A stretch of DNA of 63,965 nt, the filler included, from Psammoneis japonica (taxonomy: Eukaryota), in the NCBI GenBank assembly GCA_008632985.1. It is 4 parts of 4 records of this genome, joined end to end, with 100 filler letters (N's around TTAATTAATTAA, not from the genome) between each part and the next. Parts side by side here need not be neighbours in the genome. Positions count along the whole stretch, not along the records: positions 62,737 to 63,965 come from QPGO01000463.1; 3 more parts are not named here. One strand, given 5' to 3'. The notes under the pieces were generated by a model that was not told the DNA's origin, searched no databases, and worked only from the letters and a program-made list of their open reading frames with translations. Position numbers and translations under genes: made by a program. Numbering within the stretch: the stretch's first letter is position 1; each line of letters begins with the position of its first letter. Below are positions 23,923-63,965 of the stretch, piece after piece.

Positions 23923-24216
23923 GACTACAGAGGATCGTGGACGGCACGCAACTTTAGAATTGTTTTAGTTTACCTTGCGCATTTATAATTTATAACTACC
24001 TCAGCATACATTGATTGTCTTCAGCCTGTGATTCATAACTACCCCAGCATGCATTGATCGATTTCAGCTTTTGTGTGTTAGTCTTTTCAATTGAGAACTA
24101 GATGCATTTACAATGCCTCCAGTTCCATTTGAGATGTGCATCTGGCTTTTAGAGGCACATGCTGGGAAGCCATTTTGCTTCATTTTTCCTTGAGCAACTT
24201 CCACAAGAAGCTCGAA

Positions 24217-29100: not shown

Positions 29101-29857
29101 GATTGGCACTAGTGAAGTTTCAACCAGCACAGCTGCTCCGACACCGTCACCTACAAATAGCATTCCAATTACGGAACTACCAACACAAGATCCCGCGTCG
29201 CCACCGTCGACTCCGGGTCCAACGACTCTCAATCCAACATCGTTGCCGACGACAAACCCTACTCCTCGTCCAACTCTCAATCCAACACCTCGTCCTACAC
29301 TCAATCCAACGCCTCGTCCAACTCTCAATCCAACTCCACGCCCCACTCCATCACCAGCTCCAACAACACCCAATCCCACCAGTGGTGGTGGCAGCAGTAG
29401 TTTGCCGCCAAACGGTCCATGGGATCCCGTCGGACAAACTTTGCACGGCAAGGCTGCAGATGATTTTGGCGATTCCGTGTCCTTGTCTCGTGATGGCAGG
29501 GTCATGGCTGTTGGAGCGGAGCAATCTTCTTCCAATCCCGGCTATGTTGTTGTGCAACGATACAATCCAAACACCCAACAATGGGAACAAATTGGCCAAG
29601 ATTTGATTGGACAAGCGGACGGCGACGGTTTTGGAGAGTCTGTTTCGATAAATGGCGACGGCACGATTCTTGCGGTTGGAGCGGATGAAAATGACAGTGG
29701 CGGATTGAATGCCGGTCACGTTCGTGTTTTGAATACAACTCGGCATCGGATCGTTGGGTTCAACTCGGCAGTGACATTCTTGGACAAGACGCTGGTGATT
29801 GGTTTGGTGATTCCGTGTCGCTCTCGGACGCGGGAGACATTCTTGCCGTGGGGAGCG
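26178..29857 (+). CDS. MLKL-like kinase receptor, next copy; several 1-nt indels; 3' end truncated by the gap
   Basis: Split into ORFs 26178, 26389, 27360 and 27590, which together match 11033-14710. The indels may be assembly errors or pseudogenisation. Confidence 0.75.
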
Positions 29858-39789: not shown

Positions 39790-42260
39790 TTCAAAAGTCT
39801 GTCTCATTTCACGCCACCACACATGATCTTGGTGGCAATGTCTGCCGGAATGCATTCCGATTGGATGTGTCCAGCAAGGGATTCACCCATTGCCACCGAC
39901 TCTCCAATGGCATGGCAGCAAATCAAGTTTGACTTCTTCTTCAGAGCAGACTCAGGGTTCTGCGTGTTGTGAACAATGGACATGATGTTGTCACCACAGA
40001 TGTGGGACAGACCAGACAATGGTGTGCCCATCATTCGCACTTGGCACCTCAGACCATGCAAGGCTTCCATGCCCTGCTTCATGGCCACAAACTCAGCACC
40101 AAAGACCAAAGTCTCAATGGTGCTCTGGCGCTTTTGGAAAACCATGTGACCAAAGCCATGTTCAAGCAAGTGAAACAGCCGGTGCATGAGCACCTCATCA
40201 ACTTGTCATTGGCACAATCAGAGTCAACGAACAGGCACAGATCAACCTCCTTGCCTGGAGGGATTGGTGCATTGCTGGGGTCTGCCTCCTTGACATCCCC
40301 ACAAAATGACTTCCAGCCACATTCCTTGAAGTCGGACATGTCCATCTCCGGTCATGTCAGATCAAACACCAGCCTGGCATTGTGCCTGTTCTTGAGACAT
40401 CCGCACACATGCAGGACTGCCTCAAGATGGGCCCTCCCTTGGCATGGCAAGGAAGGAGGCAAGCTCAGAAATCTCAGTGATTAGATCCACGTGTCTGAGC
40501 TTGACCATCCAGCACAGGATGCCTGCCTGCGACTGGTGAAACTGAGCTTCATTGGCTCAGGCATGGTGTCAACGTTGGGCCAACAGTCACATGGGAAAGA
40601 AGCCGTTGGCAGGCATGGCAACGTCTTCCCTGGGCTCTTTGCCTGAAGATGTGCCTCTACATTCTTGACAGCCTGTTGGGTGTGCTTGCTGGAACTTGTG
40701 ACCCAAGCATGGACACCATTTGGCAGCTCCACTTCACAGATCTTGGCCCCGAGGTGCATCTCCGGATTGCCAATGGAGCCGGGCTTTATCTTGAAGTGTT
40801 GGTCAATCTCCTTTAGAGCACATGTGGCATCATGGTGCACCATCAAAATGTCATCAATGTACAACAATGCACAGGCACAGCACCAGAACCCATCGTTGGG
40901 TCGGACCTCTTCCTTCATCCAGACATCTGGGTCCACCAGGCATGGCAACCACCCCAAGTGTTGCATGCATGAGACCAAATGATTTCTGAAAGATGCGCCA
41001 TCACTCTTCAATCCACAAAGGGCACACTGGACAATTGCTCTCTTTCCTGTGTCAGGTCCAAACTCTGGTCCCAGAGTCACAGTTGTCTTCCTCCTGCTGT
41101 GGCTGGGGAGCAGTGATGCAGGCATTCTTGACTTCTGCAGCATTGATCTCAAGGTCATTGAGGGCAGCAAGAGTGAGCACAATCCTTGCACTTTCATGAG
41201 AGATGACACCAGCACATGTCAGTGCAGTCAGAGGTTCAGTGGTGCATCCCCCTGCCAGCATGTGGCGGGCCTTGCGCTTGAAGTCTTGGAGTTTGATGTC
41301 AAAGACCAACTGGCATCTGATGTGCTGGTGTCCTGCCAGCTTCTTGTCATCCTCAGCTGCCTCAAAGGCTTTTCTGACTGTGCCCATCTCCTTGTCAACA
41401 GCATCTTGCAATTGTTGGTCCCCATTTCCCTTGTCAATCTTGACAGCTTCTTTGCAAGTCTTGGGAACATGTGTCCCCCGCACTTGTGAGTCCACTTGTG
41501 GTGACGCTCATTGACAGCAGCAACAATCTGCTTGCGCTTCTTGAAGGCATGTGGAACCCACCAAGCAAAAGCCAGTTTGTCTTCATCAGATCAGGTTCTG
41601 GCATGCTCAGCCAGTTCTGTTGGGTTTGATTTTTTCAAATCTGCAGCTGCTCCCAAGAGGCAGTGCCATCCCTTCAACAAACACAAAGGTGCCATCCTTT
41701 GGTTGTTTTCCAAGCAAAGCAGCACCCTCTGCTGTCTTGGGAGACTGCGTCCTGTTTCTGAATGGCATGCTCATTGGTCTTGTGGTCTGCAATGGCATCC
41801 AGCAACAAATGCTGGTTGCTCTTGAATTCACACTGAGCAAACAAACTCTTGGCAATGACATCAGAGCCACTGGTTCTGACTCCTGACTGTTGGGGAACTC
41901 CACCTCATGGACGCACATGTCTGGGATGGGACTGGCATTGGCTTGTCCTGCCAGTGTTCTGTCTGGGCTCAGCTTCTGCCATTTGACCTTGCTGGTCTGG
42001 CATGTGTTCCCATCATGTGGCAGCAAAACTTCAGCATTCATGCAGATGTTGTGAGCCATGTCAGGTGGTGTGTGGTGTGTTGGCTTCTGGGGCACCAGAC
42101 GGGTCTTGTTCTGAGTCATCCTTGCATGGATCAAAGGTGAGAGTGATTGCATTGGGGTCATCAATGTTGCTGACGGTCATCCCAGGACCAAGCTTGGCCT
42201 CTGCCATGGCATCAAATTTGTCCTGCAATGCCAAGTGCGCAAAACTGCAATGCTGTGCTG
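39790..42260 (-). mobile_element. Ty1/copia (CoDi-like) pol remnant (RT + RNase H), second family
   Basis: FKRKAR...AGG, ALCGLKS.GASFRNHL, DPDVWM, LLYIDDIL, FVDSDCA, FGAEFVAMK, LKKKSNLICCH, ADIATK. Many frameshifts; TpA- and CpG-depleted. Confidence 0.9.
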
Positions 42261-45200
42261 TCATTTTCAAGAAGTGAGCTCATTGCAGCACACACATTGA
42301 ATGCACATTGTCGCTAAATTCTGTGTTCAACGTGCAAATTCCCACATGACAATTCCACATGGTAAATTGTTCAGTTGGACTGCGAGTGCACACGGCTGCT
42401 GCATTCAAATGCCATCCCATTGGAGGATGCAAGTGATGCATGTGAGGGTGATGGCAAAGAAACTGAGCCAAGGCTTCTGCCTCATGTTCAATCAGTGCCT
42501 GCCTTTGGGGAGTTGCTTCAAGAAACTTTTGAGTTGTTTGCCACTTGAGTTCCTCTTTCATTCTTCTCTTTTCTCATTTTGTTTCAGCATCTGGACAGTC
42601 TCCTCAAGTCTCTTGATTCTTGTTTGCTGCAAATCCAACAACCTTGTTTGATTGGCAACAGTTTGACAGATGAGGGGCATGTGGTGTGATTCTTCATCAA
42701 AGCTCTCACCACGTGCTTGTTTGCCTGTTGTTGAACTTCTTCAAATTTGATCGTTTTGAAAAATCGGAAGGTGAGTGCACACACACACACACACACAAAG
42801 TTTTGTGCACAATTGCCCTTTGATTTTAGAAAAAATCAATTTTGAAGGAGTTTGTTGTGCCAAATGCAAAAACACTGGGCCAGTGCTGGGAATTGAGCCT
42901 GTGCATGGCACCTGGAGCTGGGACAGGCCTGGCATCATGTTGACCTTGTGGCTGGGCATCCAGCTTTCCCCAGTTTTCAGAAATGCCAACATTCTTTGTC
43001 TTCTCATTCTTGTTGTCTCTCTCCATTTCTTCCACATCTTCCATTTTCTCAAACAAGCTGCCAAAAGACAGCATTTGGTCCATGCTGTGTGCAGTTGGCA
43101 GCACATTTGCTGTGTGACGCAATCATTCTCTCTCTGTTTCATTGAGGCCAGCTGGAAAGGACAGTGAGTGGTCTTTGAACTTAAATGATGCCATGAATTT
43201 ATTTTGGAAACAGACAGTTTGCCACCACAAAGAATTGCTTTTCAAAGTTGGCAATGAACAAGAAAACAGCTGTGTTGAGGACAAGTTGTGCACTGGCCAG
43301 TCCAATTGCAGTGTTGCAAATGGCTGAGCAGTGTGCCACACAGACATCAACTGAGACCATGGCCATGCTGCTGACAAAACAATGACTGTTCAAATGACAT
43401 CCTCACATGCAGGTGAGCTTTGCTCCACTCACAACATTTCTCTTTAGCCGGGCAAACATGTGGGCTGTGCAAACAATGCCCAGCCAACCCAATTTGCCTC
43501 ATTCCCATCAGCACATTCCCAGCTGGCAAAGGGGATGCTCCACCAGCAGACCCTGTCTGTGCTCCTGTTTCCAAAGTCAAGCTGCACAGTCATCAGGAAC
43601 AAACCAAAAATTGCAAATTGCCCCCCCCCCCCCCATTGAAACAGACACAATCAGTCAAAAGCAAAAAAAGACTGTGTGGGACAAGAGAAAGCTGCAGAGA
43701 AACAAGAGGCCTTGCTGCAATGGAAAAGACAGACAAGAAAGCAAACAATGCACACACAAAGATTGTGGCATTGACAGCATTGCTGAGGCTTTTTTCTTTG
43801 ACAAGTGAAACAACTGATCTTGGCATGCTCCAACTAAGTTGCAACACATGGTGAAGGAGCCACATGTTCAAGATTGTGCAGAGAAGCATTGCCACAGTTA
43901 GAAACAAATGCAAAATGACATTCCTTTGTCAAGAAGGGCATGTGTGGTGTGTGGTGCCCATCAATTGATGTCATTCAGAAATGTTGCACCAGTCACAACC
44001 AATTTTTTGCACAGGGAAAAACATCATGTGAGAGGGTGATTGGAGCCAGCAACTTTTTGGGTGCTTGGTTCAAATGCTGTCTGATCAATGGCATTGGCCT
44101 TCACTGTGCAAATCAAAGTGCTGTTGACCAGATGGCATTTCAGTTAATTTTCTAAGAAGTTGATGCTCAAATGTGGAATGTGGGTGGACACAGACAGGCC
44201 AATGACAACTGCTTTTGGTGCTCTCCTCCTGCACAATCTCTGCACAAGCATGTGCATGGGCAAACCAAGCAGCAAGAGCCAATGCCAAAACTGCCAATTG
44301 GAGCATGATGTGCCAAAGTGCAACAAGGCTCTCATGAGTGCCCTGACATTCAGAAGCAAAACAGAGTTGCAGCATCAAGAACAACAGCCAGTGCATGCTG
44401 TGCCCCATGTGGAGGATGCAAAACTCAGAAAAGAAATTTGGAACAGGCACTTGTCTGTGCCCACACCCTCTTCATGTGACAACAGCTGTGCTTTGTGCAA
44501 CTCCTGCTCTGACATGTGTTGCAGAAAAAAGCTGGCACTGCCACACAACTGTTGCTGGATGTTTTTGGGTTGCCTCTCATCACTGGTCATGGTGCAACAA
44601 TGATTGGCTCATCATCAAAAATGCCCACAACAATGCTGGTGAAACTTTTGGCAGAGACTGGGTTCTCAGAGCTGGGTGTGCATTGCAGAAACTCAATCAG
44701 GAAAGGAGTGAGCTGCACGTTGGTGCAGAATGTCTTGGTTTGCAAAGAGGGCATGTGCTGATCAGAAGAGAGGGAACACACATTTGCTGCATGACATTTG
44801 GGAGTCAGCTGGCAACAAACTGGCTGCAGGTTGCAGCTTGCCATCACACAACAACTCTCACTTGAAAAGAATGTTGGCAATGGACCCACACTCTTGTGGC
44901 GTTGCAGCAGCAAGAAACAAGGCTTTGGTGACAACAAATGTCAACACAGCTTCAAATGGCTGAGCGCCTGTTGTCATGCCATTGTTGCATCTTGCACACC
45001 CACATGTTGCGCATGTCAATGGATCTGTCATCTTCTCCAGTCTTTGCTTTGTCACACTGTCCAGAACAATGTGTGCAGAATTCCACTTGGGCTTGCAAAT
45101 GCTTGCATGCTGCAAAAGAACTCTCCAAGTTGATGAAAGCTCTCCCCACATTGGAGAAGCTCTGACAACCATTTCTTTTCTCATTGTCTTCTTGTTGTTT

Positions 45201-46280
45201 CATGAAACCAGCACACAATCTTGTCATTGAGCTCAAAGCACAACAACAATGACAGAAAAGCACACCCATTGATGGCTGTTCTCCAGCTCATGTGGCCATG
45301 CCCCAAAAGCAGCTGTGCTGCTCTTTCTTCTTCTCCTGGCTCCATGCCTCTGATGATGTCCTTGTTCAAAACATTTTCGCCCCCTTGCAAAACAATGGCA
45401 TTTTGTTTTTGCAGCTGATGACCCTGCCCCCCTTTCCTTGATCTCACCTCTCCAACAGGACCTCTTTTGTCTTTGTTCTTCCACCCCACCCTGGGACACC
45501 TCATGTGCCAAAACAGAGATGTCACTCACCCCACACTCACAACACAGTCAAATGAAAAGATGACACCCAAAAAGTGCAAAAAGCAAAAACCAAACTTTCC
45601 CACCTTGTCAGCTCCAGTTTCTGAACAGACAGCAGTGAGACGACCAACAACTCCTCTGCCAAAGCTTGCTGCCATTTCCCTGGGTCATGATCAATGACCA
45701 AGCTGAACAAAAAGCAAGCTTGACAAACCACTCCTGCAACCACGAGACTGGCAACCAATGGGCCCGGCTGCAATGTGGCATCACAACCTCACATGACCCA
45801 GAAAGTGGGGGGTGCTTTGTCAGATCAAACTCCATGAGAAAAACCAAATCCTCTGAAGTCCACTGCATTGTTGTTCTCAAAATGGCACCTCACAACCATC
45901 AAGAATTGTTTGGTGACAGTTTCTGATTTTTTCATTCTGGCTCTCCATCTAAAGCTGCAGACCACACCTTTTTGCGCTGCTTCCCTGGCCACATGAGCAC
46001 TCTGAATTTGCTGACAAAGTGTTTTGACCTGATCTTTCTCAGCAGCTGTCGATGCACACACCACCAACAGCCACAAAAACATGCTGACAGCATCACTCTA
46101 AATTTGAGGACCTCTGCAGCATCAAAGCAAGGAAAAATCAGCCACAAGTGCAACTTGCTGTTCCAAAAAAAAACACCAGAACATTGATGAAGCAGCCAAC
46201 AAAGATGTCTGGCAGTGCCGCAGCAGTCGGCAGTGGAGATGACACAGAGGCATTGCTTTGTGCTCAAGCTGGAGGACTTT
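42260..46280. mobile_element. Unclassified, highly degenerate TpA/CpG-depleted repeat DNA
   Basis: Same composition as the adjacent copia remnant; only spurious Cys/His/Gln-rich ORFs. Family not recognisable. Confidence 0.45.
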
Positions 46281-46284
46281 GCCA

Positions 46285-46674
46285 GACGCGTTCCAGGTCT
46301 AGGTGGGACCTCGCACTACTGAACTGTGACATCGACAGTTTTTTGAATCTCGTCGTATGTCGCGCACGTAGATTTCTACGTGATTTTTTCGACACTTTGT
46401 GTCATTTTACGGTACACTTATTGAGCGATCCGTCCAACAACTTTTGACATTTTTTGTTATAGCGCGATTCTATAATGTCTTAAGAATCGCGTAGGGCAGG
46501 CGTATTTGCAAAAACGTCGAGTGGTAAGAGGCATAATTGTACCACAAACTTGGCCGTTTATTTGATGTTGAAGATAAATATATCCATCAATTAAATTCTC
46601 GTACTACAGAGCTCGCACGTAGAATTCTACGGGCCCAATGTCACACGGAGTCCCACCTAGGGCTGGAACGCGTC
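46285..46674. mobile_element. MITE, 390 bp, with 25-bp TIRs and a 4-bp TSD (GCCA)
   Basis: GACGCGTTCCAGGTCTAGGTGGGAC (46285-46309) is the inverse of GTCCCACCTAGGGCTGGAACGCGTC (46650-46674) with 2 mismatches. GCCA at 46281-46284 and 46675-46678. Confidence 0.8.
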
Positions 46675-46788
46675 GCCAGGCAGATGACAGACTGGGGTTG
46701 TTCTTATCTTCTTTTTGACTCCATGAGCTTTGCAGCCTCCATTTGAAGATGGCGCAGTTGCAGGTCTGTCCTTGTGCCAACAAATGTG

Positions 46789-47715
46789 AGCTGCAGACTT
46801 GTTCCAGACTTGGGTGCACTCACGCGCAAAAAAATGACCCTTTTCGCATGAAACGCGTGGTGCACACTTGCGGCGCCATTTTCGACAGCACAAACACAAC
46901 AATTTTCAAATGTGTTGTCATGGGCACATGCAGAAAGGTCTTGTGCGTGCACCCATGTGTTTGAAACTGTGGATGGACTCAGTCATCAGTCGCTAAATTG
47001 TGCCGTAAGTTGAGAGCTCGGTTTTCCGATTGGCGATTCAAGTGTGTCTTCATGTGTGTGAAAACACACAAAATGTTGTTCTCATGCATTAATCAAGTCC
47101 TTAACATGACATAATTTTTGTTTTGTTAGAATGCGCGTGTGCAAGCAACACTCAACGGATCGAATGAAACATTCGTTGATTGATGAGTTTTGGACGACGT
47201 GAGAAGAAGTGCAGCTCAGCCCACGCAATGGCATTGACTTTGGACCATTTTTGACTGTTTAAAAGGCATGAACGATTGACACACTTGAATCAGTTGCACA
47301 CATTGAGGAAATGTACATGGCAATGGAAAAGAAATGGTCCTTTGAGGCAAGTTGTGAGTGAGCTGAGGCTCAATTGTTGTTGCCAACAGATTTGGCATCA
47401 TTGCACCGCACTGCAGCCTGCAACAAGCATTTTCATTGTTGTTGTTGATGCCACAGACTACATCAAATATGGAGGTCCTTGTCATGACATTCAATTTTCC
47501 AAAAGGCTGAAAAAAGTGGGCCGTCATGGTCACTGAAAGCCATGGCCGGTTTGGCTGTTTGTTTGTTCGAGTTTGTTCTGTTTGTTTCACTTGTGAGCCA
47601 TTAACATGATGAATTTAATGAAACATGTGCGGTGTCATGTGAAGCACAAAACATTTATTTTTTCTGCAAAAAGGGGCATGTGCGCACCACCCAAGTCTGG
47701 AACAAGTCTGCAGCT
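46789..47715. mobile_element. Non-autonomous DNA transposon, ~930 bp, with perfect 28-bp TIRs
   Basis: AGCTGCAGACTTGTTCCAGACTTGGGTG (46789-46816) and its exact reverse complement at 47688-47715; TG flanks both ends. Confidence 0.7.
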
Positions 47716-48235
47716 TGTTCTTTGACACTTTGTCAAGTGGCTGGTTGGAAAGCATGCTGAGCTTGTCCTTGACAAAGGAGGTTTTGTGCAAGCACATCAT
47801 CATCATCTTCCAGTCAACAAAAAAGAAGGCCTTGCACTCAAAACATCGCAAGATCCGTGGTTTGTTTTCCTTGGACATGGCAGCACTCATGTGCTTTTCA
47901 TTTTTGCAGTGCAGAGCATCATGAGGTCAAACCACTGAGTTTTCATTGCCAACAATCTTGCAAACTTCCAACTCATTTGTGTGGCAACTGGGTGGAATGC
48001 TCTCTTGTTTTCCCTGGCACATCGCTCGTTTCCCTTTCACACCATCTGTCTCTTGCATGTGCACCCAATGATGCCAAAAACCACACACAAAGCACAGCTG
48101 CAATGGCAACAAATTTTTGATGTCAAGGCTGTGTTGAGGCACCACCAGAGCTTGTTTTTGCTCTGCATGAAAACAATGGCTGGCAACCAGGGTGCAGCTT
48201 TTTGCACCCTGTGCACTTTGAGAGTGAAAGATGTC

Positions 48236-48562
48236 AGACTGGCCACATAAAAAGGTGCTAACGGAGCTCGAAATAGCTCGAATGGTCGATTTTTAGGTGT
48301 GGACATCGATGGAAAGCTCTCGTCAGGCTCTTTGTAGTCATGTATGTGTTGTTTATAGTCATGTATGTGTTGTTTATCAATTCGTTTTTCCTAATGAATG
48401 GATGCCGGTAAAACATCTCAACGGTAATAATAATTTGTTATAAATTATGTATGTACATGAAAGATAATTATTTATTGAACGATTGCGTTCTGCGCGCTTT
48501 TTCTCAACAAATGTTTTGGGAGCTCGAGAGCGCGCGTTAACACCTTTTTATGTGGCCAGTCT
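48236..48562. mobile_element. MITE, ~327 bp, with 28-bp TIRs
   Basis: AGACTGGCCACATAAAAAGGTGCTAACG (48236-48263) versus CGTTAACACCTTTTTATGTGGCCAGTCT (48535-48562), 1 mismatch. AT-rich interior with a ~21-bp tandem duplication at ~48335-48377. Confidence 0.8.
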
Positions 48563-50672: not shown

Positions 50673-53600
50673 TCAGTTGAGGAGCTTTCGCCACCAACCT
50701 CCCCAGCCTTCTCCTCCTTTCTTACGCCCTCCTTTGGAAGAAGTTGATCTGTATCTAGTGTACTGCAAATACTCTCTTGGACCGCGGTATGTCGAGTAAG
50801 CGGTGTATCCTTTTCCCCTGCGGGTGGTTCTTCCGGGTCCTCGGCGGCGCCGTCCTTTGGATGCAGGACCGGGACTACGGCGTGCCGGTCCTGGTCTGCG
50901 GTACGATGGACCGGGGTCGCGACGTGCTGGACCTGGTCTACGGTAGGATGGACCTGGTCTGCGGTAAGATGGACCTGGTCTGCGGTAGGATGGACCTGGT
51001 CTGCGGTAGGATGGACCTGGTCTACGGTACGACGGACCGGGGTTGCGGCGTGCTGGACCTGGTCTACGGTACGACGGACCGGGTTTGCGGCGTGCAGGAC
51101 CTGGTCTGCGGTATGATGGGCCGGGGTTGCGGCGTGCAGGACCTGGTCTGCGGTATGATGGGCCGGGGCTGCGCGCATAAGATGCCCCGTTCCATGACAT
51201 GCCATTTCCAACCGGCCCGCGCCTCCTTGGCCCAGGAGAATGACCAGGGGGGCAAGGCTCGCCATTGAGTTCTCCACCACGATCCGGTGGTCCTTCTGGA
51301 TCTTCTCCAATGAAGGGACAAGACGCTCCGTTCATACTCTGAAAGATCTCTAGCTCTGTCTCAAAGTCATTGTTGAACCATCCGTCCTGGAAGAGGTCAA
51401 TGACTTGATTTGGTGACAATCCATACTCAATGTTTGGATTAGCACTGTTGAGCAGGGCCGCCACGGCGTGTCTGGCAAAGGCGTTAGGTTGGCCAGTCTC
51501 CGACACGACGTCCAAGAGATCTCGGTTGCCCTCTGCGTTGACCTCGAACACGATATCAAACCTCTCGTTTGGTGTGTAGCTTACCCAAGCAGCATCGTTT
51601 TCTCTCCAGAAACTTGGCATGCATCCCTGATCGCCCGGGGTAAAGTACGAACTCTCGTCGTTCGCATTCACTTCTATGTCAATCCCCAATTCGTCGACAA
51701 TATAGCGCCCGCTGACCATACCCCGAAGCTGTGTCAAGCCCGGCGACCCTGCGGTTTGTCGCGCTTCCCAAACCCACGTTGCTCCTGGCTGAAGCACTCC
51801 GTTTTCTCCACCTTCCCGCAGAACCGGAAAGATGCGTGGATCGATTTCGGAGAAGATGATGTTTCGTAGGGGTACGTTACCACGATTGGTCACTGTGTAT
51901 GTGATAATGGCTTCGTCGCCAGCTTCCACGGTGTCGCTATTTAGGCCATTCACCTCCGTCTCGATGTCAATGTCTGGAATAAAGTAATCCGTTTCATCAG
52001 ATGCGGAGATTTCTTGGTCGTCGCACGTGGCTGTGACTGTGGCAAAAGTGTTTGTTTCGCCGGTTGTGGCTGTTCCAGTAGCAACATAGACCCATGCCTC
52101 GTCTATGTCAAGAATATCGTCGCCATCGTCGTCGCCTTCCTCGTATCTGATGGTCACGCCTTGACCATCGTTAATCTGAATGTTGGTAACCGGAGCATTT
52201 CCTATGTTCTTGACCTTGTATGTCCAAGTGATTGCTTCGCCGGGAAGGATAATTCTGTCGTCCCCTCCGTTGGTCTTGGCGATGAGTCTCACCTGGCAAT
52301 CAGCCGGGACATCAACCGTGTAGGAGCTTGGGTCGTCGTCTTCTACCATTGTGTCACCAAACATGCCAGTGACTGACCCTATGTTCTCATATGGTTCCTC
52401 TTCGGCAATCCCGACGGCTCTGTACACCCATCGCTCGCCAACGTCAAGAATGCCATTGTTATTGGTGTCACCCTCCTCAAGGAGTGGAACTACTCCCTTG
52501 TTGTCAGTGACGGTGATGTTGGACAAAGGCACGTCACCAACGTTTTTCACAACGTAGGTAAAGACCACGTTCTCACCGGCGCTGACCATTCGCCCGTCTC
52601 CTCCTCTGTTCGAGTGTTGATTCGGATATTAGGAAAAGCAAACCCGACATGCGAAGTCGGGTCTCGAGATATGACGTCAACTCCGTTGTATTTGGCTGAG
52701 ACAATTCCCGTGTTGTTGTACGGGCCCTCCTGTTCGACGATACCATTTGCTACGTACAACCATGTCTCTCCGCGGTCAAGCTCGTCGTTACCATTGGTGT
52801 CACCCGATAAGTAGGACGGAGTTGCACCCTTGTCATCCGTCACCTCAATGTCGGAGAGAGAAACGTCGCCTTCATTTGTCACAATATACGTCCACTGCAC
52901 GACCTCACCAACACCAGCGGCAAAGTCGTCCGTTTCGTTGGTCTGCGTAACAATCTTAATTCGTTTCTCCGCAACATAAGAACTTGGGTCTGCTGCGGTG
53001 ACCGTTTCGCCGTTGGAAATGGCAGTGACCGTTCCGATGTTGGAATATGGTTCTCCACCTGCTAGTCCGTCTGATTGGAAGACCCATACTTCACCAGGCT
53101 CTAGGATGCCATTGTTGTTATCATCTCCACCAACGAGCGTTGGGATCGTGCCTCCGCTGTCCACCACTTGAACATCTGAGAGAGGTTGGTCTCCTAGGTT
53201 GGACACAAAGAACGTCCACGTTACAGCTTCACCTTCTTCCACTGCCACATTATCACCGTCGTTGGTTACAGTTTCAATGCTAATAGGATTGGAAATGACT
53301 GCAGTGTAGGAGCTGGAATCATCATCATCCACCGTTTGTCCTCTGGATTTTGCCTCAACAGTTCCAACATTATTGTAAGTGCCATTCACTGCGCTGCCGG
53401 TGGCTTGGTATAGCCATGTCTCGTCAACGTCTAACTTTCCGTCCTCGTCTTCGTCACCAGAGACGAGGTTTTCAATCACTCCAATTTGGTCATCAGTGAC
53501 AAGAACGTTCTTCAAAGGCACATTCCCCTCATTGGTAACGGCGTACGTCCAGATGACACCATCGCCGACATCCAGGGTTATTCCATCGTCGCCATTGGTC

Positions 53601-56600
53601 AAAGTTTCAATCTTTACTGAGACATTGTACCCGAAGTAGGAGCTTGGGTCATTGTCAACGGCGTCTTCGTCACCAAAGGAACCTTCTACTGTGCCAGAGT
53701 TAAAGTAGTCTCCAGTCCTGGCAGTACCATTGGCAGCGTAAATCCATGTCTCCCCGACATCGAGAATGTCATCGCCATTCAAGTCTCCCGAGATCAATAC
53801 CGGTACAACACCGGGTTCATCATCGTCGATACGAATGTTACTCAAGGGGACGTTACCGTCATTGGTAACAATGTATGTCCAGGTAACGAGACTTCCCGCT
53901 TCAATTTCAACTCCCGCTTCTTCACCGTTGGTCAGCGTTTCAATCATGACAGATACATTCGCGCCAAAGTAGGATGAGGAATCTTCGTCTTCAACTTCTT
54001 CCTCGCCGGACGTAGCGGAAACTCTTCCTGTGTTGCTGTAGTTCCCGGCCCTGGAAGTATCAACGGCTTCATATACCCAAGTCTCATCGACATCAAGCTC
54101 GTCGTCGCCGTCAATATCACCATCCACAAGATTCGTAACTTGACCGATAATGTCATCAATGACTAACACGTTGACGAGGGGCGCCGTACCCTCGTTAGTG
54201 ACGGTGTAAGTCCATGTAACAGGCTCATCAACAATAATGTCGATACCATCGTCATCATTGGTCCGCGTGTCTATCTTAATAGCCACTGTCGTTGGTGCTT
54301 GAGAAAGGGGGTCTGATGGGCTCTTGCTCGGACGAGCAGTAGGAGACAGCGTCGGCATTAAAGTCGGTTTGTCGGTAGGGTCTGAGGATGGGAGCAGAGT
54401 CGGTTCTGCCGATGGTGCTCGGGATGGGGCAGCGACAGGCATCCTACTAGGAGATTCGCTCGAAGATGGTGCAGCTGAAGGATCCTCACTAGGAATGCCC
54501 GTCGGATACTTTGTTGGTGCGAATGAAGGACGAGAACTCGGTGTGTCTGTTGGCGCGTTCGTTGGAGCATCAGAAGGTGACACCGAAGTCTGTAAACCGA
54601 CATACGAGGTGGGGTCGGAATCGTCAACCTTCTTTCCGTTCGCTGTAGCCTCGGTCGATCCGGTGTTGTTGTAGACACCGACTTGTGCGATTCCGTAGTC
54701 CTCGAAGATCCACGTTTCAAACACATCAAGCTTTCCATCATTGTCTAAATCTCCCGAAACTCGGTTGGTGATCGCACCCCTTACGCTGTCTTCTACAGTA
54801 ACGTTGGAAAGTTCAAAGTTGCCAGTGTTGGTCACTGTGTACTTCCACGTGACGGCCTCCCCACTATCAACGTCCAATCCGTCCTCTCCGTTGGTCACTG
54901 TGTCAATCAAGATAGATGCATTCACGCCATAATAAGACGAAGGGTCTGAATTATCGACCGGCTGGCCGTTGAGCAGGGCCGAAGTCGATCCGGTGTTATC
55001 GAACACCCCCTCATCGGCGGTGCCGTATGCCTCGTACACCCACGTTTCGGTCGGATCCAACTTTCCGTCCCCGTTTGAATCACCACGGAGGAGGTTGGTA
55101 ACCGGTCCTCCCTCGCTGTCCCGAACCGTGATATTGGTGAGAGGCTCACTGCCCAGGTTGGTGACGGTGTAAGTCCAGGTAACGAGTTCTCCAACATTGA
55201 TGTTGGGCCCGTCTTGGCCGTTAGTTACTGTGTCGATTCCGATGGACGCGTTCACGCCATAATAAGACGTGGAATCAGATGCTTCCACCGTCTTTCCATT
55301 CGCTGTGGCCTCGGCCGATCCGGTGTTGTTGTAGACGCCGACTTGTGCTATTCCGTAGTCCTCGAAGATCCACGTTTCAAACAAATCAAGCTTTCCGTCT
55401 TTGTCTGAATCTCCCGAAACAAGGTTGGTGATCGTACCCCTTACGCTGTCTTCCACAGTAACATTGGAAAGTTCAAAGTTGCCTGTGTTGGTCACTGTGT
55501 ACTTCCACGTGACGTTCTTTCCATTATCGATGTTCAATCCATCGTAACCGTTGGTCACTGTGTCAATCAAGATAGATGCGTTCACGCCAAAATAAAATGT
55601 AGCGTCCGAGGCATTCACTGCTTGGCCGTTGGACAGGGCCGACGTCGATCCAGTGTTGTCGACCACCCCTCTTCGGCGGTGCCGTAGGCCTCGTACACCC
55701 ACGTTTCGGTCGGATCCAAGTTTCCGTCCCCGTTTGAATCACCACGGAGGAGGTTGGTAACCGGTCCTCCCTCGCTGTCCCGAACCGTGATATTGGTGAG
55801 AGGCTCACTGCCCAGGTTGGTGACGGTGTAAGTCCAGGTAACGAGTTCTCCCACATTGATGTTGGGCCCGTCTTGGCCGTTAGCTACTGTGTCGATTCCA
55901 ATGGACGGAGAAAGCGTCGGTGATGTAGTCGGTTTGTCGCTAGCGTCTGAGGATGGGAGCAGAGTCGGTTCTGCCGATGGTGCTCGGGATGGGGCAGCGA
56001 CAGGCATCCTACTAGGAGATTCGCTCGAAGATGGTGCAGCTGAAGGATCCTCACTAGGAATGCCCGTCGGATACTTTGTTGGTGCGAATGAAGGACGAGA
56101 ACTCGGTGTGTCTGTTGGCGCGTTCGTTGGAGCATCAGAAGGTGACACCGAAGTCTGTAAACCGACATACGAGGTGGGGTCGAAATCGTCAACCTTCTTT
56201 CCGTTCGCTGTAGCCTCGGTCGATCCGGTGTTGTTGTAGACACCGACTTGTGCGATCCCGTAGTCCTCGAAGATCCACGTTTCAAACACATCAAGCTTTC
56301 CATCATTGTCTAAATCTCCCGAAACCCGGTTGGTGATCGCACCCCTTACGCTGTCTTCTACAGTAACGTTGGAAAGTTCAAAGTTGCCAGTGTTGGTCAC
56401 TGTGTACTTCCACGTGACGGCCTCCCCACTATCAACGTCCAATCCGTCCTCTCCGTTGGTCACTGTGTCAATCAAGATAGATGCATTCACGCCATAATAA
56501 GACGAAGGGTCTGAATTATTGACCGGCTGGCCGTTGAGCAGGGCCGAAGTCGATCCGGTGTTGTCGAACACCCCCTCATCGGCGGTGCCGTATGCCTCGT

Positions 56601-59600
56601 ACACCCACGTTTCGGTCGGATCCAAGTTTCCGTCCCCGTTTGAATCACCACGGAGGAGGTTGGTAACCGGTCCTCCCTCGCTGTCCCGAACCGTGATATT
56701 GGTGAGAGGCTCACTGCCCAGGTTGGTGACGGTGTAAGTCCAGGTAACGAGTTCTCCAACATTGATGTTGGGCCCGTCTTGGCCGTTAGTTACTGTGTCG
56801 ATTCCGATGGACGCGTTCACGCCATAATAAGACGTGGAATCAGATGCTTCCACCGTCTTTCCATTCGCTGTGGCCTCGGCCGATCCGGTGTTGTTGTAGA
56901 CGCCGACTTGTGCTATTCCGTAGTCCTCGAAGATCCACGTTTCAAAGAAATCAAGCTTTCCGTCTTTGTCTGAATCTCCCGAAACAAGGTTGGTGATCGT
57001 ACCCCTTACGCTGTCTTCTACAGTAACATTGGAAAGTTCAAAGTTGCCTGTGTTGGTCACTGTGTACTTCCACGTGACGTTCTTTCCATTATCGATGTTC
57101 AATCCATCGTAACCGTTGGTCACTGTGTCAATCAAGATAGATGCGTTCACGCCAAAATAAAATGTAGCGTCCGAGGCATTCACTGCTTGGCCGTTGGACA
57201 GGGCCGACGTCGATCCAGTGTTGTCTACCACCCCCTCTTCGGCGGTGCCGTAGGCCTCGTACACCCACGTTTCGGTCGGATCCAAGTTTCCGTCCCCGTT
57301 TGAATCACCACGGAGGAGGTTGGTAACCGGTCCTCCCTCGCTGTCCCGTACCGTGATATTGGTGAGAGGCTCACTGCCCAGGTTGGTGACGGTGTAAGTC
57401 CAGGTAACGAGTTTTCCCACATTGATGTTGGGCCCGTCTTGGCCGTTAGCTACTGTGTCGATTCCAATGGACGGAGAAAGCGTCGGTGATGTAGTCGGTT
57501 TGTCGCTAGGGTCTGAGGATGGAGCAGAGTCGGTTCTGCCGATGGTGCTCGGGATGGGGCAGCGACAGGCATCCTACTAGGAGATTCGCTCGAAGATGGT
57601 GCAGCTGAAGGATCCTCACTAGGAATGCCCGTCGGATACTTTGTTGGTGCGAATGAAGGACGAGAACTCGGTGTGTCTGTTGGCGCGTTCGTTGGAGCAT
57701 CAGAAGGTGACACCGAAGTCTGTAAACCGACATACGAGGTGGGGTCGGAATCGTCAACCTTCTTTCCGTTCGCTGTAGCCTCGGTCGATCCGGTGTTGTT
57801 GTAGACACCGACTTGTGCGATCCCGTAGTCCTCGAAGATCCACGTTTCAAACACATCAAGCTTTCCATCATTGTCTAAATCTCCCGAAACCCGGTTGGTG
57901 ATCGCACCCCTTACGCTGTCTTCTACCAGTAACGTTGGAAAGTTCAAAGTTGCCAGTGTTGGTCACTGTGTACTTCCACGTGACGGCCTCCCCACTATCA
58001 ACGTCCAATCCGTCCTCTCCGTTGGTCACTGTGTCAATCAGATAGATGCATTCACGCCATAATAAGACGAAGGGTCTGAATTATTGACCGGCTGGCCGTT
58101 GAGCAGGGCCGAAGTCGATCCGGTGTTGTCGAACACCCCCTCATCGGCGGTGCCGTATGCCTCGTACACCCACGTTTCGGTCGGATCCAAGTTTCCGTCC
58201 CCGTTTGAATCACCACGGAGGAGGTTGGTAACCGGTCCTCCCTCGCTGTCCCGAACCGTGATATTGGTGAGAGGCTCACTGCCCAGGTTGGTGACGGTGT
58301 AAGTCCAGGTAACGAGTTCTCCAACATTGATGTTGGGCCCGTCTTGGCCGTTAGTTACTGTGTCGATTCCGATGGACGCGTTCACGCCATAATAAGACGT
58401 GGAATCAGATGCTTCCACCGTCTTCCATTCGCTGTGGCCTCGGCCGATCCGGTGTTGTTGTAGACGCCGACTTGTGCTATTCCGTAGTCCTCGAAGATCC
58501 ACGTTTCAAAGAAATCAAGCTTTCCGTCTTTGTCTGAATCTCCGAAACAAGGTTGGTGATCGTACCCCTTACGCTGTCTTCTACAGTAACATTGGAAAGT
58601 TCAAAGTTGCCTGTGTTGGTCACTGTGTACTTCCACGTGACGTTCTTTCCATTATCGATGTTCAATCCATCGTAACCGTTGGTCACTGTGTCAATCAAGA
58701 TAGATGCGTTCACGCCAAAATAAAATGTAGCGTCCGAGGCATTCACTGCTTGGCCGTTGGACAGGGCCGACGTCGATCCAGTGTTGTCTACCACCCCCTC
58801 TTCGGCGGTGCCGTAGGCCTCGTACACCCACGTTTCGGTCGGATCCAAGTTTCCGTCCCCGTTTGAATCACCACGGAGGAGGTTGGTAACCGGTCCTCCC
58901 TCGCTGTCCCGTACCGTGATATTGGTGAGAGGCTCACTGCCCAGGTTGGTGACGGTGTAAGTCCAGGTAACGAGTTCTCCCACATTGATGTTGGGCCCGT
59001 CTTGGCCGTTAGCTACTGTGTCGATTCCAATGGACGGAGAAAGCGTCGGTGATGTAGTCGGTTTGTCGCTAGGGTCTGAGGATGGGAGCAGAGTCGGTTC
59101 TGCCGATGGTGCTCGGGATGGGGCAGCGACAGGCATCCTACTAGGAGATTCGCTCGAAGATGGTGCAGCTGAAGGATCCTCACTAGGAATGCCCGTCGGA
59201 TACTTTGTTGGTGCGAATGAAGGACGAGAACTCGGTGTGTCTGTTGGCGCGTTCGTTGGAGCATCAGAAGGTGACACCGAAGTCTGTAAACCGACATACG
59301 AGGTGGGGTCGGAATCGTCAACCTTCTTTCCGTTCGCTGTAGCCTCGGTCGATCCGGTGTTGTTGTAGACACCGACTTGTGCGATTCCGTAGTCCTCGAA
59401 GATCCACGTTTCAAACACATCAAGCTTTCCATCATTGTCTAAATCTCCCGAAACCCGGTTGGTGATCGCACCCCTTACGCTGTCTTCTACAGTAACGTTG
59501 GAAAGTTCAAAGTTGCCAGTGTTGGTCACTGTGTACTTCCACGTGACGGCCTCCCCACTATCAACGTCCAATCCGTCCTCTCCGTTGGTCACTGTGTCAA

Positions 59601-59728
59601 TCAAGATAGATGCATTCACGCCATAATAAGACGAAGGGTCTGAATTATTGACCGGCTGGCCGTTGAGCAGGGCCGAAGTCGATCCGGGTTGTCGAACACC
59701 CCCTCATCGGCGTGCCGGTATGCCTCGT
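50673..59728 (-). CDS. Giant (~3000 aa or more, 5' end missing) extracellular repeat protein: DUF11/DUF7507-like domains with DxDxDG loops, Ser/Pro/Thr linkers, a GCxPxFW...ARHAVAALLN domain and an Arg/Pro/Tyr-rich tail
   Basis: More than 20 repeats of VTWTYTVTNxGNxxLxNxxVxD...GDxxxDGxLDxxETWxY...YxNTG across ORFs 58477, 58038, 57450, 55615, 52547 and 50673, linked by 1-nt frameshifts. Confidence 0.8.
50865..51170 (-). repeat. 21/42-bp coding minisatellite encoding (RRPGPSY / RRPGPARRxPGPSY)n
   Basis: Repeated ggacctggtct(g/a)cggta units on the plus strand. Confidence 0.9.
54360..59728 (-). repeat. Intragenic tandem repeat with a ~1565-bp unit (4 domains + S/P/T linker), ~3.4 near-identical copies
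   Basis: Equivalent positions at 55856, 57420 and 58985; 54741, 56306, 57871 and 59435. Confidence 0.9.
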
Positions 59729-59828: not shown

Positions 59829-60402
59829 GTTTCAAGGAAAACAAACATGTGTTTTCAAGGAAAACAAACATGTGGTTTCAAGGAAAACAAACATGTCATT
59901 TCAGGGAAAACAAACATGTCATTTCAAGGAAATCAAACATGTCTTTTCAAGGAAAACAAACATGTCGTCTCAAGGAAAACAAACATGTCTTTTCAAGGAA
60001 AACAAATGTGTGTTTCTAAGGAAATCAAACATGTCTTTTCAACAAAAAAAAACATGTCGTTTCAAGGAAAACAAACTTGTGTTTTCAAGAAAAACAAACA
60101 TGTGGTTTCAAAGAAACCAAACATGTCGTTTCAGGGAAAACAAACATGTCGTTTCAAGGAAAACAAACATGTCGTTTCACGGAAAACAAACATGTCTTTT
60201 CAAGAAAAACAAACATGTCTTTTCAAGGGAAACAAATGTGTCTTTTCAAGGAAAACAAACGTGTCATTTCAGGGAAACCAAACATGTGGTTTCAAGGAAA
60301 ACAAACATGTCTTTTCAAGGAAAACAAACATGTTTTTTCAAGAAAAACAAACATGTTGTTTCAAAGAAAACAAACATGTCTTTTCAAGGAAAACAAACGT
60401 GT
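59829..60402. repeat. 23-bp satellite, consensus ~CTTTTCAAGGAAAACAAACATGT, ~25 copies, running into an N gap
   Basis: Direct head-to-tail repetition without unique spacers. Confidence 0.95.
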
Positions 60403-60946
60403 NNNNNNNNNNNNNNNNNNNNNNNNNNNNNNNNNNNNNNNNNNNNNNNNNNNNNNNNNNNNNNNNNNNNNNNNNNNNNNNNNNNNNNNNNNNNNNNNNN
60501 NNNNNNNNNNNNNNNNNNNNNNNNNNNNNNNNNNNNNNNNNNNNNNNNNNNNNNNNNNNNNNNNNNNNNNNNNNNNNNNNNNNNNNNNNNNNNNNNNNNN
60601 NNNNNNNNNNNNNNNNNNNNNNNNNNNNNNNNNNNNNNNNNNNNNNNNNNNNNNNNNNNNNNNNNNNNNNNNNNNNNNNNNNNNNNNNNNNNNNNNNNNN
60701 NNNNNNNNNNNNNNNNNNNNNNNNNNNNNNNNNNNNNNNNNNNNNNNNNNNNNNNNNNNNNNNNNNNNNNNNNNNNNNNNNNNNNNNNNNNNNNNNNNNN
60801 NNNNNNNNNNNNNNNNNNNNNNNNNNNNNNNNNNNNNNNNNNNNNNNNNNNNNNNNNNNNNNNNNNNNNNNNNNNNNNNNNNNNNNNNNNNNNNNNNNNN
60901 NNNNNNNNNNNNNNNNNNNNNNNNNNNNNNNNNNNNNNNNNNNNNN

Positions 60947-62636
60947 CTTCCTGAGGTCGCTGGCTCGAATCGGCCTCAAATCCAAGCCTCCTTTTCTTTC
61001 TCGGCCTGCCCCTTTCCAACCCCATCCGGGGTGGGCGGCTGGGCTTCGAACCCACTCCTCCCTTGGCCGGATGCGCCACATGGCGCTGGCCCATCCTGCC
61101 CAACATGGGGAGTGCATGGCCAAATTCGTGAGTCCTCCGTGCGGATGCACCACATGGTGACAACCCATCCTGCGACGAGAGGGAGAGTTGGACAAATGCT
61201 GTGTGACGATGCTGCGCACAACACACACCCAAATGTGTGCGCGGAGAAGGGACTCAACAGCCAGCCGAGTGGCAACTTCTTTGCCTCTTGGGTTGTTGAG
61301 AACCTCTTGCACTCGCCAGGGCAGTGTGCAGCATTCTGAGTGGTTGTGAGTCTTTGCACTTCCTGAGGTCGCTGGCTCGAATCGGCCTCAAATCCAAGCC
61401 TCCTTTTCTTTCTCGGCCTGCCCCTTTCCAACCCCATCCGGGGTGGGCGGCTGGGCTTCGAACCCACTCCTCCCTTGGCCAGATGCGCCACATGGCACCA
61501 ACCCATCCTGCCTGACAGAGGGAGTGCATGGTCAAATTCGCAAGTCCGCTGTGCAGATGCACCACATGGCAACAACCCAGAGTTGGACAAATGCTGTGCG
61601 ATGATGCTGTGCACAACACACGCATCAGAGTGCACGAAACGTTAAAAATGTGTGGATTTGCATGATGGCAATTTGTCAAAATGTTGCAAAAAATTGTTGT
61701 CACACAATGACAGGCCAACCTCTGGTTGCAAGTTTGCTGTGCCAATGTCACGACAACTTGTTGAGAATCATGTGCGCCATTTTTCACTGTGCCCACATCG
61801 CCATTTCTGCCTCCACCTTGTTGCCATGTGCCAATCCATGATTGCATTGCCGCACAATCCTTGGTTTGTCAATTTTGCAACAGGGGTGTGATCACAGAAC
61901 CACTTGCATGCCTGCTTGTTCCTTCGTTTGCTGCCAGCGACAGTGTCTGGGCCAAGCGGATCCCATGTCGGCACAATCAGGATGTCTTTCTTTTCGTTCT
62001 TGTCACGGCTTGACTTTTTCCTGCCTTGCTTTTTCCTCTTGACTGCCGCCTTGAGTTTCTTTTCTTTTTCCTTTCCCTCTTCCTTGGCAACAACGCCTGC
62101 ACAGACAAAGCATCACCGTCATCTTCTTGCGAGATGCGTGCAACTCTCGAGTCACACACATTGGTCACCCAACTTGTGGGCCATTGCCTCCACCCCAACA
62201 GCCGAACACACCGTGTTTCTGAGATTGTCAACTTGCCTTTTTGCCGCCTCTTTTGCCCATTCCTCCCAAGTTCCTGACCAATTTGAAGTGTCCATGTTGC
62301 CACCAGCAATCTGTTTCTTGACAAACATTGAGACGCTCCCATTGCTTGCCAGTTCTGATGGACTGAGAAACTTCACCTGTGAAAAGAGATCATTTCCAGC
62401 CACCTTCTCCACTTCTGGTTTCAGCGCACCATGCGCTGCCTGCGCGCCCATTCTCTTCAACACTGCCTGAAGTCTCAGGCTCATTGGCTCAACAGTCTCA
62501 TTTTTCTTTCTCTTCTTTGCCGGTGGTGCTGGAGACGACATCTTGATCTTTTCACAGCAGGCCTGTTCCAGCTCCAGGTGCTCCGCGTGGGTTCGATTCC
62601 CATCATTTGGAAATTTGTGCATTTGGCGCAATGACT
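60947..62636. mobile_element. TpA-free TE-like remnant with a direct duplication (60947 vs 61359, offset 412)
   Basis: Only one TA found by eye (~61643). ORF 62152-62631 (-) may be a relic of a real protein. Family unknown. Confidence 0.5.
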
Positions 62637-62736: not shown

Positions 62737-63965
62737 GATGCTGGAGGTTAGTGGGGTCAATGGGAGAATCCTCAGTTCCGTCGTTGGTGTGTCGGAAAGC
62801 CTTCGAATGTGTCGAAATATTGGTCTGTCTGTCCGGCTGTCCGAAAACGAGCGCGTTGATTTCCTTCACGATCTCGCGAAGGGGGATGAGATCACGCATC
62901 GCTTGGGAGAGGGCGACACACTCGGCTTCCATGGTAGAGAGTGCGACGAGGGTTTGTAACTTGGACACCCAGACAATCGGACATCCTGCACAATAAATGA
63001 CACACCCCGTGCGTGACTTGACAGACGTGGGATCTTGTCCATCTTCAACACTGAAGAGTCCCGCGAAATCAGCATCAACATGGCAGTCGAGTCGTTGATC
63101 GGCGGTTGGAGTTAGGATAAGTCCTTTATCGGCCGCATCCTTCAGGTGACGAAGAATGCGCTTGATGGCCGCAGCGTGGGAGGCCTTGGGTGCGCAGGAG
63201 AACCGTGCGACTTGATGGGTCGCGCAAGCAATGTCCGGGCGGCTGTCAGACGCTAGACACATCAGCATGCCGTCCACGGAACGGCAGTCATAAGGCTCTT
63301 CGAACGGTGGCCCGTCGGTGTCGCTGCCAGCAGGAGCAGGCAAGGCAGGAGTGGGTGCGCCGTTGCACTCAGTCATCTGTGCGGTGCGGAGAACTTTCTC
63401 AATTAGGCCGGGTTGGGTCAGGAGGAATCGGCCGTCTTCGAGCTTTTGAATCTTGATACCTGGAAAGTTACCGACTTCGCCTTCATCATAGATATCAAAG
63501 ACATGGCGTTGCTCATCGTTAGAAACACCCAACTTGGCAATCTCTGCTTCCAAGGCTTGGGCCGATGCGCCGGCGAACACGGTGTCATCAACATGCACCA
63601 CACATGAACATGCCCTTTTTGAAATAAAGACAAGGGTCAATGGCGGATTGAATCCATCCTCTTTCGAGCAATCCGTCCCTCAGCTTTTCATGGAAGCACT
63701 TGGGAGACTGGCGCAGGCCGCACAGGCCTTTCAACAATTTCAGTGCCAGATCGGCGCCCGATTTTGGCTGGAAACCCTTGGGAGGCTCTACACAGACCTT
63801 CTCCTTGACATCAGCTTGGCAGAAGGCTGCAGTGCAGTCCACTTGACGTGTAGTCCAACCTTCCTTGAGTGCCGTGGTGAGGAGAAGGCGCATGGACGAC
63901 CATTGCACTGCCGGCGCGTGGGTCTCGAAAAAATCGATCCCGTGTTTCTGCAAATCGCCGCGAAC
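62737..63965 (-). mobile_element. Ty1/copia (CoDi-like) RT/RNase H, relatively young copy with systematic Tyr->Cys/His changes
   Basis: GIDFFETHAP, QVDCTAAF, LCGLRQSP, VHVDD, CRSVDGMLMCL, SRPDIAC, ILRHLK, DCHVDADFAG, SRTGC, STMEAEC. One frameshift near 63620. Confidence 0.95.

Follow-up and report, generated by a model that had tools for sequence, protein, structure and literature searches.

Evidence for a probable TpA-directed hypermutation of copia retrotransposon and repeat DNA in the diatom Psammoneis japonica

Cytosine is a known target of hypermutation directed at mobile DNA, through fungal repeat-induced point mutation (RIP) and through APOBEC in animals. The genomic DNA of Psammoneis japonica analysed here (63,965 nucleotides from assembly GCA_008632985.1, referred to as the window) ends in a Ty1/copia-type retrotransposon fragment at 62737–63965, and both this fragment and several blocks elsewhere in the window probably carry the traces of a process that acts on the dinucleotide TpA. 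Hypermutation directed at TpA was first reported in 2026, from a single chlorarachniophyte, Bigelowiella natans (Mettrop et al., bioRxiv 10.64898/2026.01.13.699255); the earlier note that flagged the copia fragment from its sequence knew of no published description, which this preprint supplies. According to its main text, mutation-accumulation lines showed a rate in two regions of integrated viral DNA about 1000-fold above that of the rest of the genome, and nearly all changes are A→G or T→C, every one at TpA. The B. natans genome also contains 124 TpA-poor, CpA+TpG-rich clusters, one of which is an entire small scaffold, the TpA-depleted coding sequences are enriched in reverse transcriptase (RT) and DDE domains, and the authors propose that an ADAT2 homologue is responsible (10.64898/2026.01.13.699255).

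The two cases have in common A→G and T→C changes at TpA on either strand, with foreign or mobile DNA hit and host genes spared. They differ in the host, which is a rhizarian in the case of B. natans and a diatom (stramenopile) here, and in the targets, which are giant-virus and virophage inserts in the main text of the preprint and copia retrotransposons and other repeats in the window. The diatom side is further marked by saturation (0–3 TA per kb), by an overlying decay of CpG and by a preference for a 3′ pyrimidine (TAY), while the main text of the preprint, its supplements lying outside our search, contains no statement on the 3′ neighbour and neither the term “CpG” nor “copia”. The cut-offs of the preprint were passed by 15 of the 61 non-overlapping 1-kb segments of the window, seven of them consecutive from 39001 to 46000, and were not passed by the flagged copy (observed/expected ratio, o/e, 0.31 for TpA, 1.15 for TG and 1.32 for CA). 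No report of TpA hypermutation in diatoms was found in the searched literature, with subscription journals and bioRxiv supplements outside the search, and look-ups of the relevant terms in PMC2806351, 10.1101/2025.10.24.684338 and PMC6604790 gave none either. With P. japonica, TpA hypermutation is extended to a second organism, for the first time to a stramenopile and for the first time clearly to retrotransposons, and detail is gained on its motif and on how it relates to CpG decay.

The window consists of four assembly pieces (1–29857, 29958–59728, 59829–62636 and 62737–63965) joined by artificial linkers (44 N, TTAATTAATTAA and 44 N, around 29902, 59773 and 62681), and since these are separate scaffolds, features are not to be read across the joints. 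The last piece comprises the first 1229 bases of its contig, ended by the window end, and carries on the minus strand a dead Ty1/copia-type RT and RNase H fragment detected by Pfam RVT_2 and tblastn (62737–63965). The N-terminal RT frame (63588–63965, minus strand) matches RVT_2 with an E value of 1.5e-20 and 74.3 bits (cut-off 31.6), and the second frame (62737–63679, minus strand), which continues the RT and contains the RNase H, scored 20.6 bits, under the same cut-off. Using tblastn, the fragment was found collinear with residues approximately 1304–1701 of a polyprotein of 1783 amino acids (P0002, with PF13976 and PF07727) and with seven more long relatives, RNase H following RT as in the C-terminal part of copia polyproteins. 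The two frames are separated by a frameshift near 63600–63620 (minus strand), where a single base, at 63605 or 63607, is missing from some contigs of the public run X1, and neither frame contains an in-frame stop, which makes the description of this copy as nearly intact a fair one. As the catalytic YVDD box reads HVDD (codon CAT, 63593–63595) and the frame is broken, the element is a dead copy and not an active copia member.

Both frames were aligned to 120 listed relatives (best identity 58–59%, the sole named one being from Fragilaria crotonensis), and a column was regarded as a conserved Tyr column if it contained Tyr in at least 70% of the 120. All 11 such columns were changed in the flagged copy, four to His and seven to Cys. 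The His codons are located at 63918–63920 (CAC), 63593–63595 (CAT, the YVDD box), 63146–63148 (CAC) and 63080–63082 (CAT); the Cys codons lie at 63834–63836 (TGC), 63792–63794 (TGT) and 63720–63722 (TGC) in the N-terminal RT frame and at 63284–63286 (TGC), 63257–63259 (TGT), 63002–63004 (TGT) and 62918–62920 (TGT) in the frame of the C-terminal RT part and RNase H, all on the minus strand. Of the 206 other conserved columns, only 28 were changed (Fisher p=1.7e-9), and these 28 themselves included TA losses: Val→Ala (GTA→GCA) twice, Leu→Pro (CTA→CCA), and the change of an initial A preceded by T in three codons (t|GAC, t|GTC and t|GCG). In the columns of Lys, Met, Asp, Glu and Gln, neither A→G nor T→C was seen (0/52). 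The substitution of Tyr by His or Cys at about 12 copia positions, as noted earlier, was confirmed; of the examples listed there, that of YRS is loose, the column reading W-E-Y-A-S in the consensus and Y-D-C-R-S in the window. In the relatives, these columns contained 1201 Y, 78 F, 20 H and 1 C in one set and 946 Y, 48 F, 20 H and 2 C in the other, and none of the 240 relatives examined had more than two His or Cys residues there, which indicates that the Tyr losses are not a family trait. Related intact elements encode Tyr at these sites. Searches of the protein collection at “longer” and “near” length found relatives of 58–60% identity at best and no member of the same family.

To define the context of the changes, each conserved column was represented by its window codon or, where the residue was changed, by the nearest codon or codons of the consensus residue, and only those sites were counted where a transition alters the residue. 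Transitions occurred at 18.3 of 34.7 A/T sites in TpA context and at 5 of 181.7 other A/T sites (odds ratio 40, p=6e-13), while C/G sites showed 6 in 212. Both A→G (11.3) and T→C (7.0) were seen on the coding strand, hence both DNA strands are affected; the TA context and the action on either strand that the earlier note had read from the Tyr codons thus hold when all conserved columns are counted. Only 19 TA are left where 62.2 would be expected from the composition (o/e 0.31), CpG and AA are as abundant as had been claimed (o/e 0.96 and 1.15, respectively), and 10 of 11 conserved Arg are retained.

This picture allowed three known processes to be compared. RIP of ascomycete fungi is similar in being repeat-directed and dinucleotide-specific, in producing transitions only, in acting on integrated DNA and in destroying coding capacity. 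However, RIP attacks C and turns CpA into TpA, raising TpA/ApT, whereas here the base attacked is A or T. The RIP indices, with TpA/ApT of 0.29 in the flagged copy and 0.01–0.04 in the blocks described below and (CpA+TpG)/(ApC+GpT) of 1.36–2.06, run in the opposite direction, as had been proposed, and RIP was rejected. Deamination of 5-methylcytosine (5mC) yields identical products, TpG and CpA, and methylation of long terminal repeat elements at cytosines in CpG context has been described in Phaeodactylum (PMC2806351). It cannot remove TpA, however, and as the sole cause in the flagged copy it was rejected, CpG o/e being 0.96 and conserved Arg changed in only 1 of 11 cases; since this copy is TA-poor and CpG-intact, CpG decay and TpA loss are separable, and the claim that 5mC decay does not account for the TpA loss stands. 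ADAR and APOBEC of animals are likewise deamination systems that hypermutate mobile nucleic acids, but their substrates are RNA or single-stranded cDNA and their signature is confined to one strand, whereas the diatom pattern is symmetric and arises in place. An ADAR-type change of the transcript strand (A→G only) is contradicted by the T→C changes that accompany A→G on the coding strand.

The state of other copies of the family was followed in X1, which contains half of the sampled words and whose pieces were placed at a likeness of at least 80%. Altogether 283 pieces matched the flagged copy (69 at 99% or more, 100 at 95–99%, 72 at 90–95% and 42 below 90%), and none were matched in runs X2 and X3. 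Word depth was 720–850 in the near-identical unitigs and 44–55 in divergent single pieces, which suggests roughly 15 near-identical copies. The 45 variable places (40 of them listed) included 40 transitions (11 A>G, 12 T>C, 9 C>T and 8 G>A), and in their context they were mostly interchanges among TA, TG, CA and CG. Seven adjacent CA↔TG doubles distinguish the window from other copies (62893–62894, 63010–63011, 63247–63248, 63691–63692, 63721–63722, 63741–63742 and 63919–63920), some of which could stem from CpG. Two of them fall in conserved Tyr codons: ETYAP has His (CAC) in the window and Cys (TGC) in 95% of the depth, while LYGL has Cys in the window and His in 41% of the depth. At a further Tyr-related site (63690–63692, minus strand), where the window has CAT for His and other copies have Cys or Tyr, three states stand side by side at 63691–63692, namely TG (window, His), CA (52% of the depth, Cys) and TA (approximately 9%, Tyr). 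In other copies, TG or CA stands in place of four TAs that the window retains (62819, 62994, 63128 and 63520). At the 11 conserved Tyr codons, no TA variant reached a share of 5% in the X1 contigs, a run that may not be independent of the assembly, and two of the codons showed the alternative product. The rarity of TA and the presence of both TG and CA argue that TA is the older state and that TG and CA are independent products of it.

A 1-kb sliding dinucleotide profile along the window revealed further blocks that are nearly devoid of TpA and in which TG and CA reach about 1.8–2.0 times the expectation. The block at 3949–6011, with a twin at 19100–21159, retains 3 TA (o/e 0.01–0.05), and its CpG o/e is 0.76 at 3949–4817 and 0.25 at 4817–6011. 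At 9004–10642 (plus strand), a 5′-truncated copia pol C-terminus (8999–9910) and its downstream sequence contain 3 TA (o/e 0.03) with CpG o/e 0.36, the edge of the block at 9004 lying only 5 bp from the start of the copia homology; by homology between the halves of the first piece (99.5% identity), its twin is found at 24150–25787 (plus strand). The largest saturated block, 6.2 kb in length (39769–45950, minus strand), has 16 TA (o/e 0.04), CpG o/e 0.14 and TG and CA of about 1.85, and it includes a decayed copia-type RT at approximately 40574–41089, matched by 36 of the 120 relatives at E≤1e-2. A short block at 47656–48248 has 1 TA (o/e 0.02; CpG o/e 0.16). Finally, the entire third piece, a short scaffold (59829–62636), has only 2 TA in about 2260 called bases (o/e 0.01–0.02) with CpG o/e of about 0.55; it bears a 23-bp tandem array of at least 17 units (59829–60402) and a 221-nt direct repeat with copies at 60947 and 61359, spaced by 412 bp. 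The longest runs without TA measured 1194, 1455 and 1797 bp, and in runs of up to this last length about 70 TA would be expected at the host level. TG equals CA in the blocks, the sole asymmetry being that of the 23-bp array, which comes from its repeat unit. A Pfam search of 14 and then of 20 open reading frames (ORFs) of the blocks gave no match at or above the curated cut-off. The many long overlapping ORFs in several frames at 39500–48300 and 59829–62636 are spurious and result from the loss of the TAA and TAG stops. The third piece also has an ORF of no assigned family at 62152–62634 (minus strand).

In the saturated copia copies, conserved Tyr was changed in six of six cases (five times to His or Cys) and conserved Arg in nine of ten (TGT four times, and TGC, TGG, TGA, CAT and CAA once each). 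The Arg losses are classical CpG decay, so that in the saturated blocks 5mC deamination does operate; in the flagged copy, with 10 of 11 Arg kept and CpG at 0.96, it left no comparable mark, and its description as an early stage of the process is therefore reasonable. The CpG loss was weaker than the TpA loss at 3949–4817 and in the third piece and was absent from the flagged copy. This dissociation implies two separate processes with the same products, of which TpA loss can come first. As for targeting of transposable elements, the copia-derived blocks are almost TA-free, in contrast to normal host ORFs at a distance of a few hundred bases, which upholds that claim, though only for these blocks; the block at 3949–6011, its twin and the third piece have no recognizable transposon protein.

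Ordinary forces, that is, AT→GC drift, GC-biased gene conversion or selection against UpA in RNA or against TA target sites, might seem sufficient, as TpA is under-represented in most genomes (PMC3829696) and genome-wide here as well, the host ORFs beside the blocks having TpA o/e of 0.46–0.65 (with CpG about 1). We regard this as very unlikely. The excess at TpA over other A/T sites is 40-fold, the Lys, Met, Asp, Glu and Gln columns are free of both A→G and T→C, the blocks do not differ from the background in GC content, and TA-free runs extend to 1797 bp; moreover, selection cannot account for the complete loss of TA in non-coding, decayed copies.

The two halves of the first piece (1–15456 and 15458–29857) are 99.5% identical over 11.2 kb, with 38 mismatches and 18 gaps and with the left end less alike, and they derive from a tandem duplication of recent date or are two haplotypes in series. 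In each half, genes for a ferric reductase and a large kinase accompany two converted blocks. Only seven differences between the halves fall within blocks, too few for a spectrum, and one of them is a TG↔CA pair (5275–5276 versus 20423–20424), which indicates that this site was resolved differently once the copies were apart, on the chromosome rather than at retrotransposition. At the edge of the 6.2-kb block, a short repeat (39505–39627) also differs from its inner copy (42264–42376) by TA/TG and CG/TG. These data bear on a different origin of the changes, namely that they were made outside the chromosome at retrotransposition, by ADAR-style RNA editing or by deamination of the minus-strand cDNA, and were fixed by integration. 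Animal editing enzymes are known to target retroelements. A→G change with a 5′ U preference is indeed the signature of ADAR, as stated in the B. natans preprint (10.64898/2026.01.13.699255). Nevertheless, both strands were hit about equally (11.3 versus 7.0) and TG equals CA in the blocks, the tandem-repeat scaffold and blocks without retroelement genes were also converted, and near-identical halves of one locus differ by TG↔CA in place. ADARs are known only in animals, and an origin at retrotransposition appears highly improbable.

Environmental copia loci were also inspected. Among the 80 fetched with the alignment of relatives, 78 had TpA o/e of 0.40–0.91, and the remaining two, both copia RT remnants, were depleted: L038 (1–1789; TpA 0.04, CpG 0.20, TG/CA 1.67) and L053 (1–3750; TpA 0.30, CpG 0.22, TG/CA 1.50). 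Neither showed DNA similarity to the window, and their Tyr and Arg columns gave a mixed signal, these families being distant. A sequencing, assembly or data-handling artefact could be suspected, as the scaffolds are chained by artificial linkers and the flagged piece is a contig end, but it is extremely unlikely: the 283 contig pieces of X1 carry the family with the same states, protein homology is retained with codon-consistent changes, and L038 and L053, unrelated public contigs, show the same loss of TA and CG.

The TAs that escaped conversion disclose a preference in the flanking bases. Among the 25 survivors of the converted blocks, 16 were YTAR and one was RTAY, while unconverted host DNA (n=1041) had 139 and 324, respectively (Fisher p=1.2e-8); compared with the 78 environmental copia loci, in which YTAR makes up 20%, the excess was also significant (p=2.7e-6). 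The 54 strand-resolved survivors comprised 24 TAA, 19 TAG, 6 TAC and 5 TAT, against host proportions of 0.21, 0.20, 0.32 and 0.27, respectively. The survivors thus indicate that an adenine followed by a pyrimidine is preferred, the target being 5′-TAY-3′, with which all four window TAs mutated in other copies agree. Such a preference makes Tyr codons, which are themselves TAY, the prime in-frame targets. TadA and ADAT2 naturally act on A34 after U33, and C follows in bacterial tRNA-Arg; this context resembles the 5′-TAY-3′ preference.

The damaged base could also be the thymine. In such a route, a TET/JBP-type oxidase would produce 5-hydroxymethyluracil or 5-formyluracil at TpA in silenced chromatin, and mispairing with G or error-prone repair would lead to T→C. 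In dinoflagellate DNA, 5-hydroxymethyluracil shows a preference for TpA and TpC, and mispairing with G is known for 5-formyluracil. Due to the strand symmetry, a damaged A and a damaged T look alike in the sequence, and the spared YTAR reads as a preference for RTA when it is viewed from the thymine. On the other hand, neither such a modification nor such an enzyme has given any sign in this organism, and the sole experimental precedent argues for adenine deamination, likewise without proof (10.64898/2026.01.13.699255, main text). We consider the thymine-side route improbable.

Taken together, we favour a targeted, in-place, TpA-specific mutational process on transposon and repeat DNA, to which we assign a probability of about three in four. 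The sequences show the pattern itself, its dependence on context, its symmetry between strands, its restriction to transposon or repeat blocks and the separate outcomes reached in different copies; for de novo events the evidence is indirect, consisting of polymorphism among the copies and between the two halves of the first piece. At the level of pattern, the interpretation given in the earlier note is supported, each of its sequence-level predictions having held. TpA would be converted into TpG or CpA by A→G on either strand; the process would act on integrated DNA in place, preferring adenine before a pyrimidine, and would be directed at repeated or transposon-derived DNA, sparing the adjoining host genes. 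The flagged copy has lost roughly half to two thirds of its TA with CpG untouched, and in the older remnants the TpA process would have run to completion, with ordinary CpG→TpG/CpA decay added afterwards. Chemically, a TadA/ADAT2-like enzyme might deaminate adenine in DNA, leaving hypoxanthine, and guidance to repeats might come from silencing marks or small RNA. Adenine deamination by an enzyme of this type is our leading guess for the agent, at less than even odds.

Several points weigh against this process. The direction of change rests on the protein consensus and rare TA read variants rather than on a true ancestor of the family, and the enzyme and its guidance by silencing or small RNA are what we infer beyond the sequence pattern. 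X1 may be the own sample of the assembly, and its contigs also lose rare variants. Four TAT codons persist in the flagged copy (63624–63626, 63488–63490, 63290–63292 and 62993–62995, minus strand) at non-consensus columns where the relatives have F, R, W or M, while none of the 11 conserved Tyr is left; two of the four are in the TAY context that is supposedly favoured, and had the four been ancestral Tyr, such a split would arise by chance once in 1365. Later mutation may account for them, or they may be residues specific to the family, and no simple flanking rule for their survival was found in this copy. Furthermore, three of the four Tyr→His events occurred in a context disfavoured by the TAY rule, and some CA↔TG doubles are in a less favoured context as well, so the rule is not absolute. 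Most of the approximately 15 near-identical copies have identical His/Cys states, hence most hits are older than the divergence of these copies, and as the copies seem to have HVDD in common and most of the depth carries the frameshift, a dead element must have been multiplied, whether by mobilization in trans, segmental duplication or gene conversion. Finally, the block at 3949–6011, its twin and the third piece lack, as described above, any recognizable transposon protein.

The diatom signature suggests that the TpA process is widespread among major marine algae and brings the question to a group for which genetic tools exist, where the TAY motif provides a sequence against which candidate enzymes can be tested. 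For annotation, converted blocks could mislead gene finders, which might take the spurious ORFs for genes, and they escape homology-based detection of transposons. More tentatively still, these traces may reflect a dedicated diatom defence in which a TadA/ADAT2-like enzyme turns the adenine of 5′-TAY-3′ in repeated or silenced elements into a base read as G, before CpG decay and independently of it, and which shares its origin with that of Bigelowiella. This combined proposal is rather doubtful; if true, it would represent an adenine counterpart of fungal RIP and, owing to the shared origin, an old defence of the stramenopile–alveolate–rhizarian lineage instead of the curiosity of one alga.

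The diatom nature of the host was also apparent from homology. An intron-free ferric-reductase ORF of 759 amino acids (6497–8776) had its best named relatives in Asterionellopsis (56%), Seminavis, Ditylum, Epithemia, Cylindrotheca and Chaetoceros, and the absence of any near-identical protein from the collection shows that the host is not Bigelowiella. In the second piece, very long ORFs on the minus strand at 50673–59703 contain many DUF7507/DUF11 repeats according to Pfam, with Pro/Thr/Ser-rich linkers between them. They probably constitute a large repetitive gene for a surface or secreted protein, and domains of this type are better known in bacteria.

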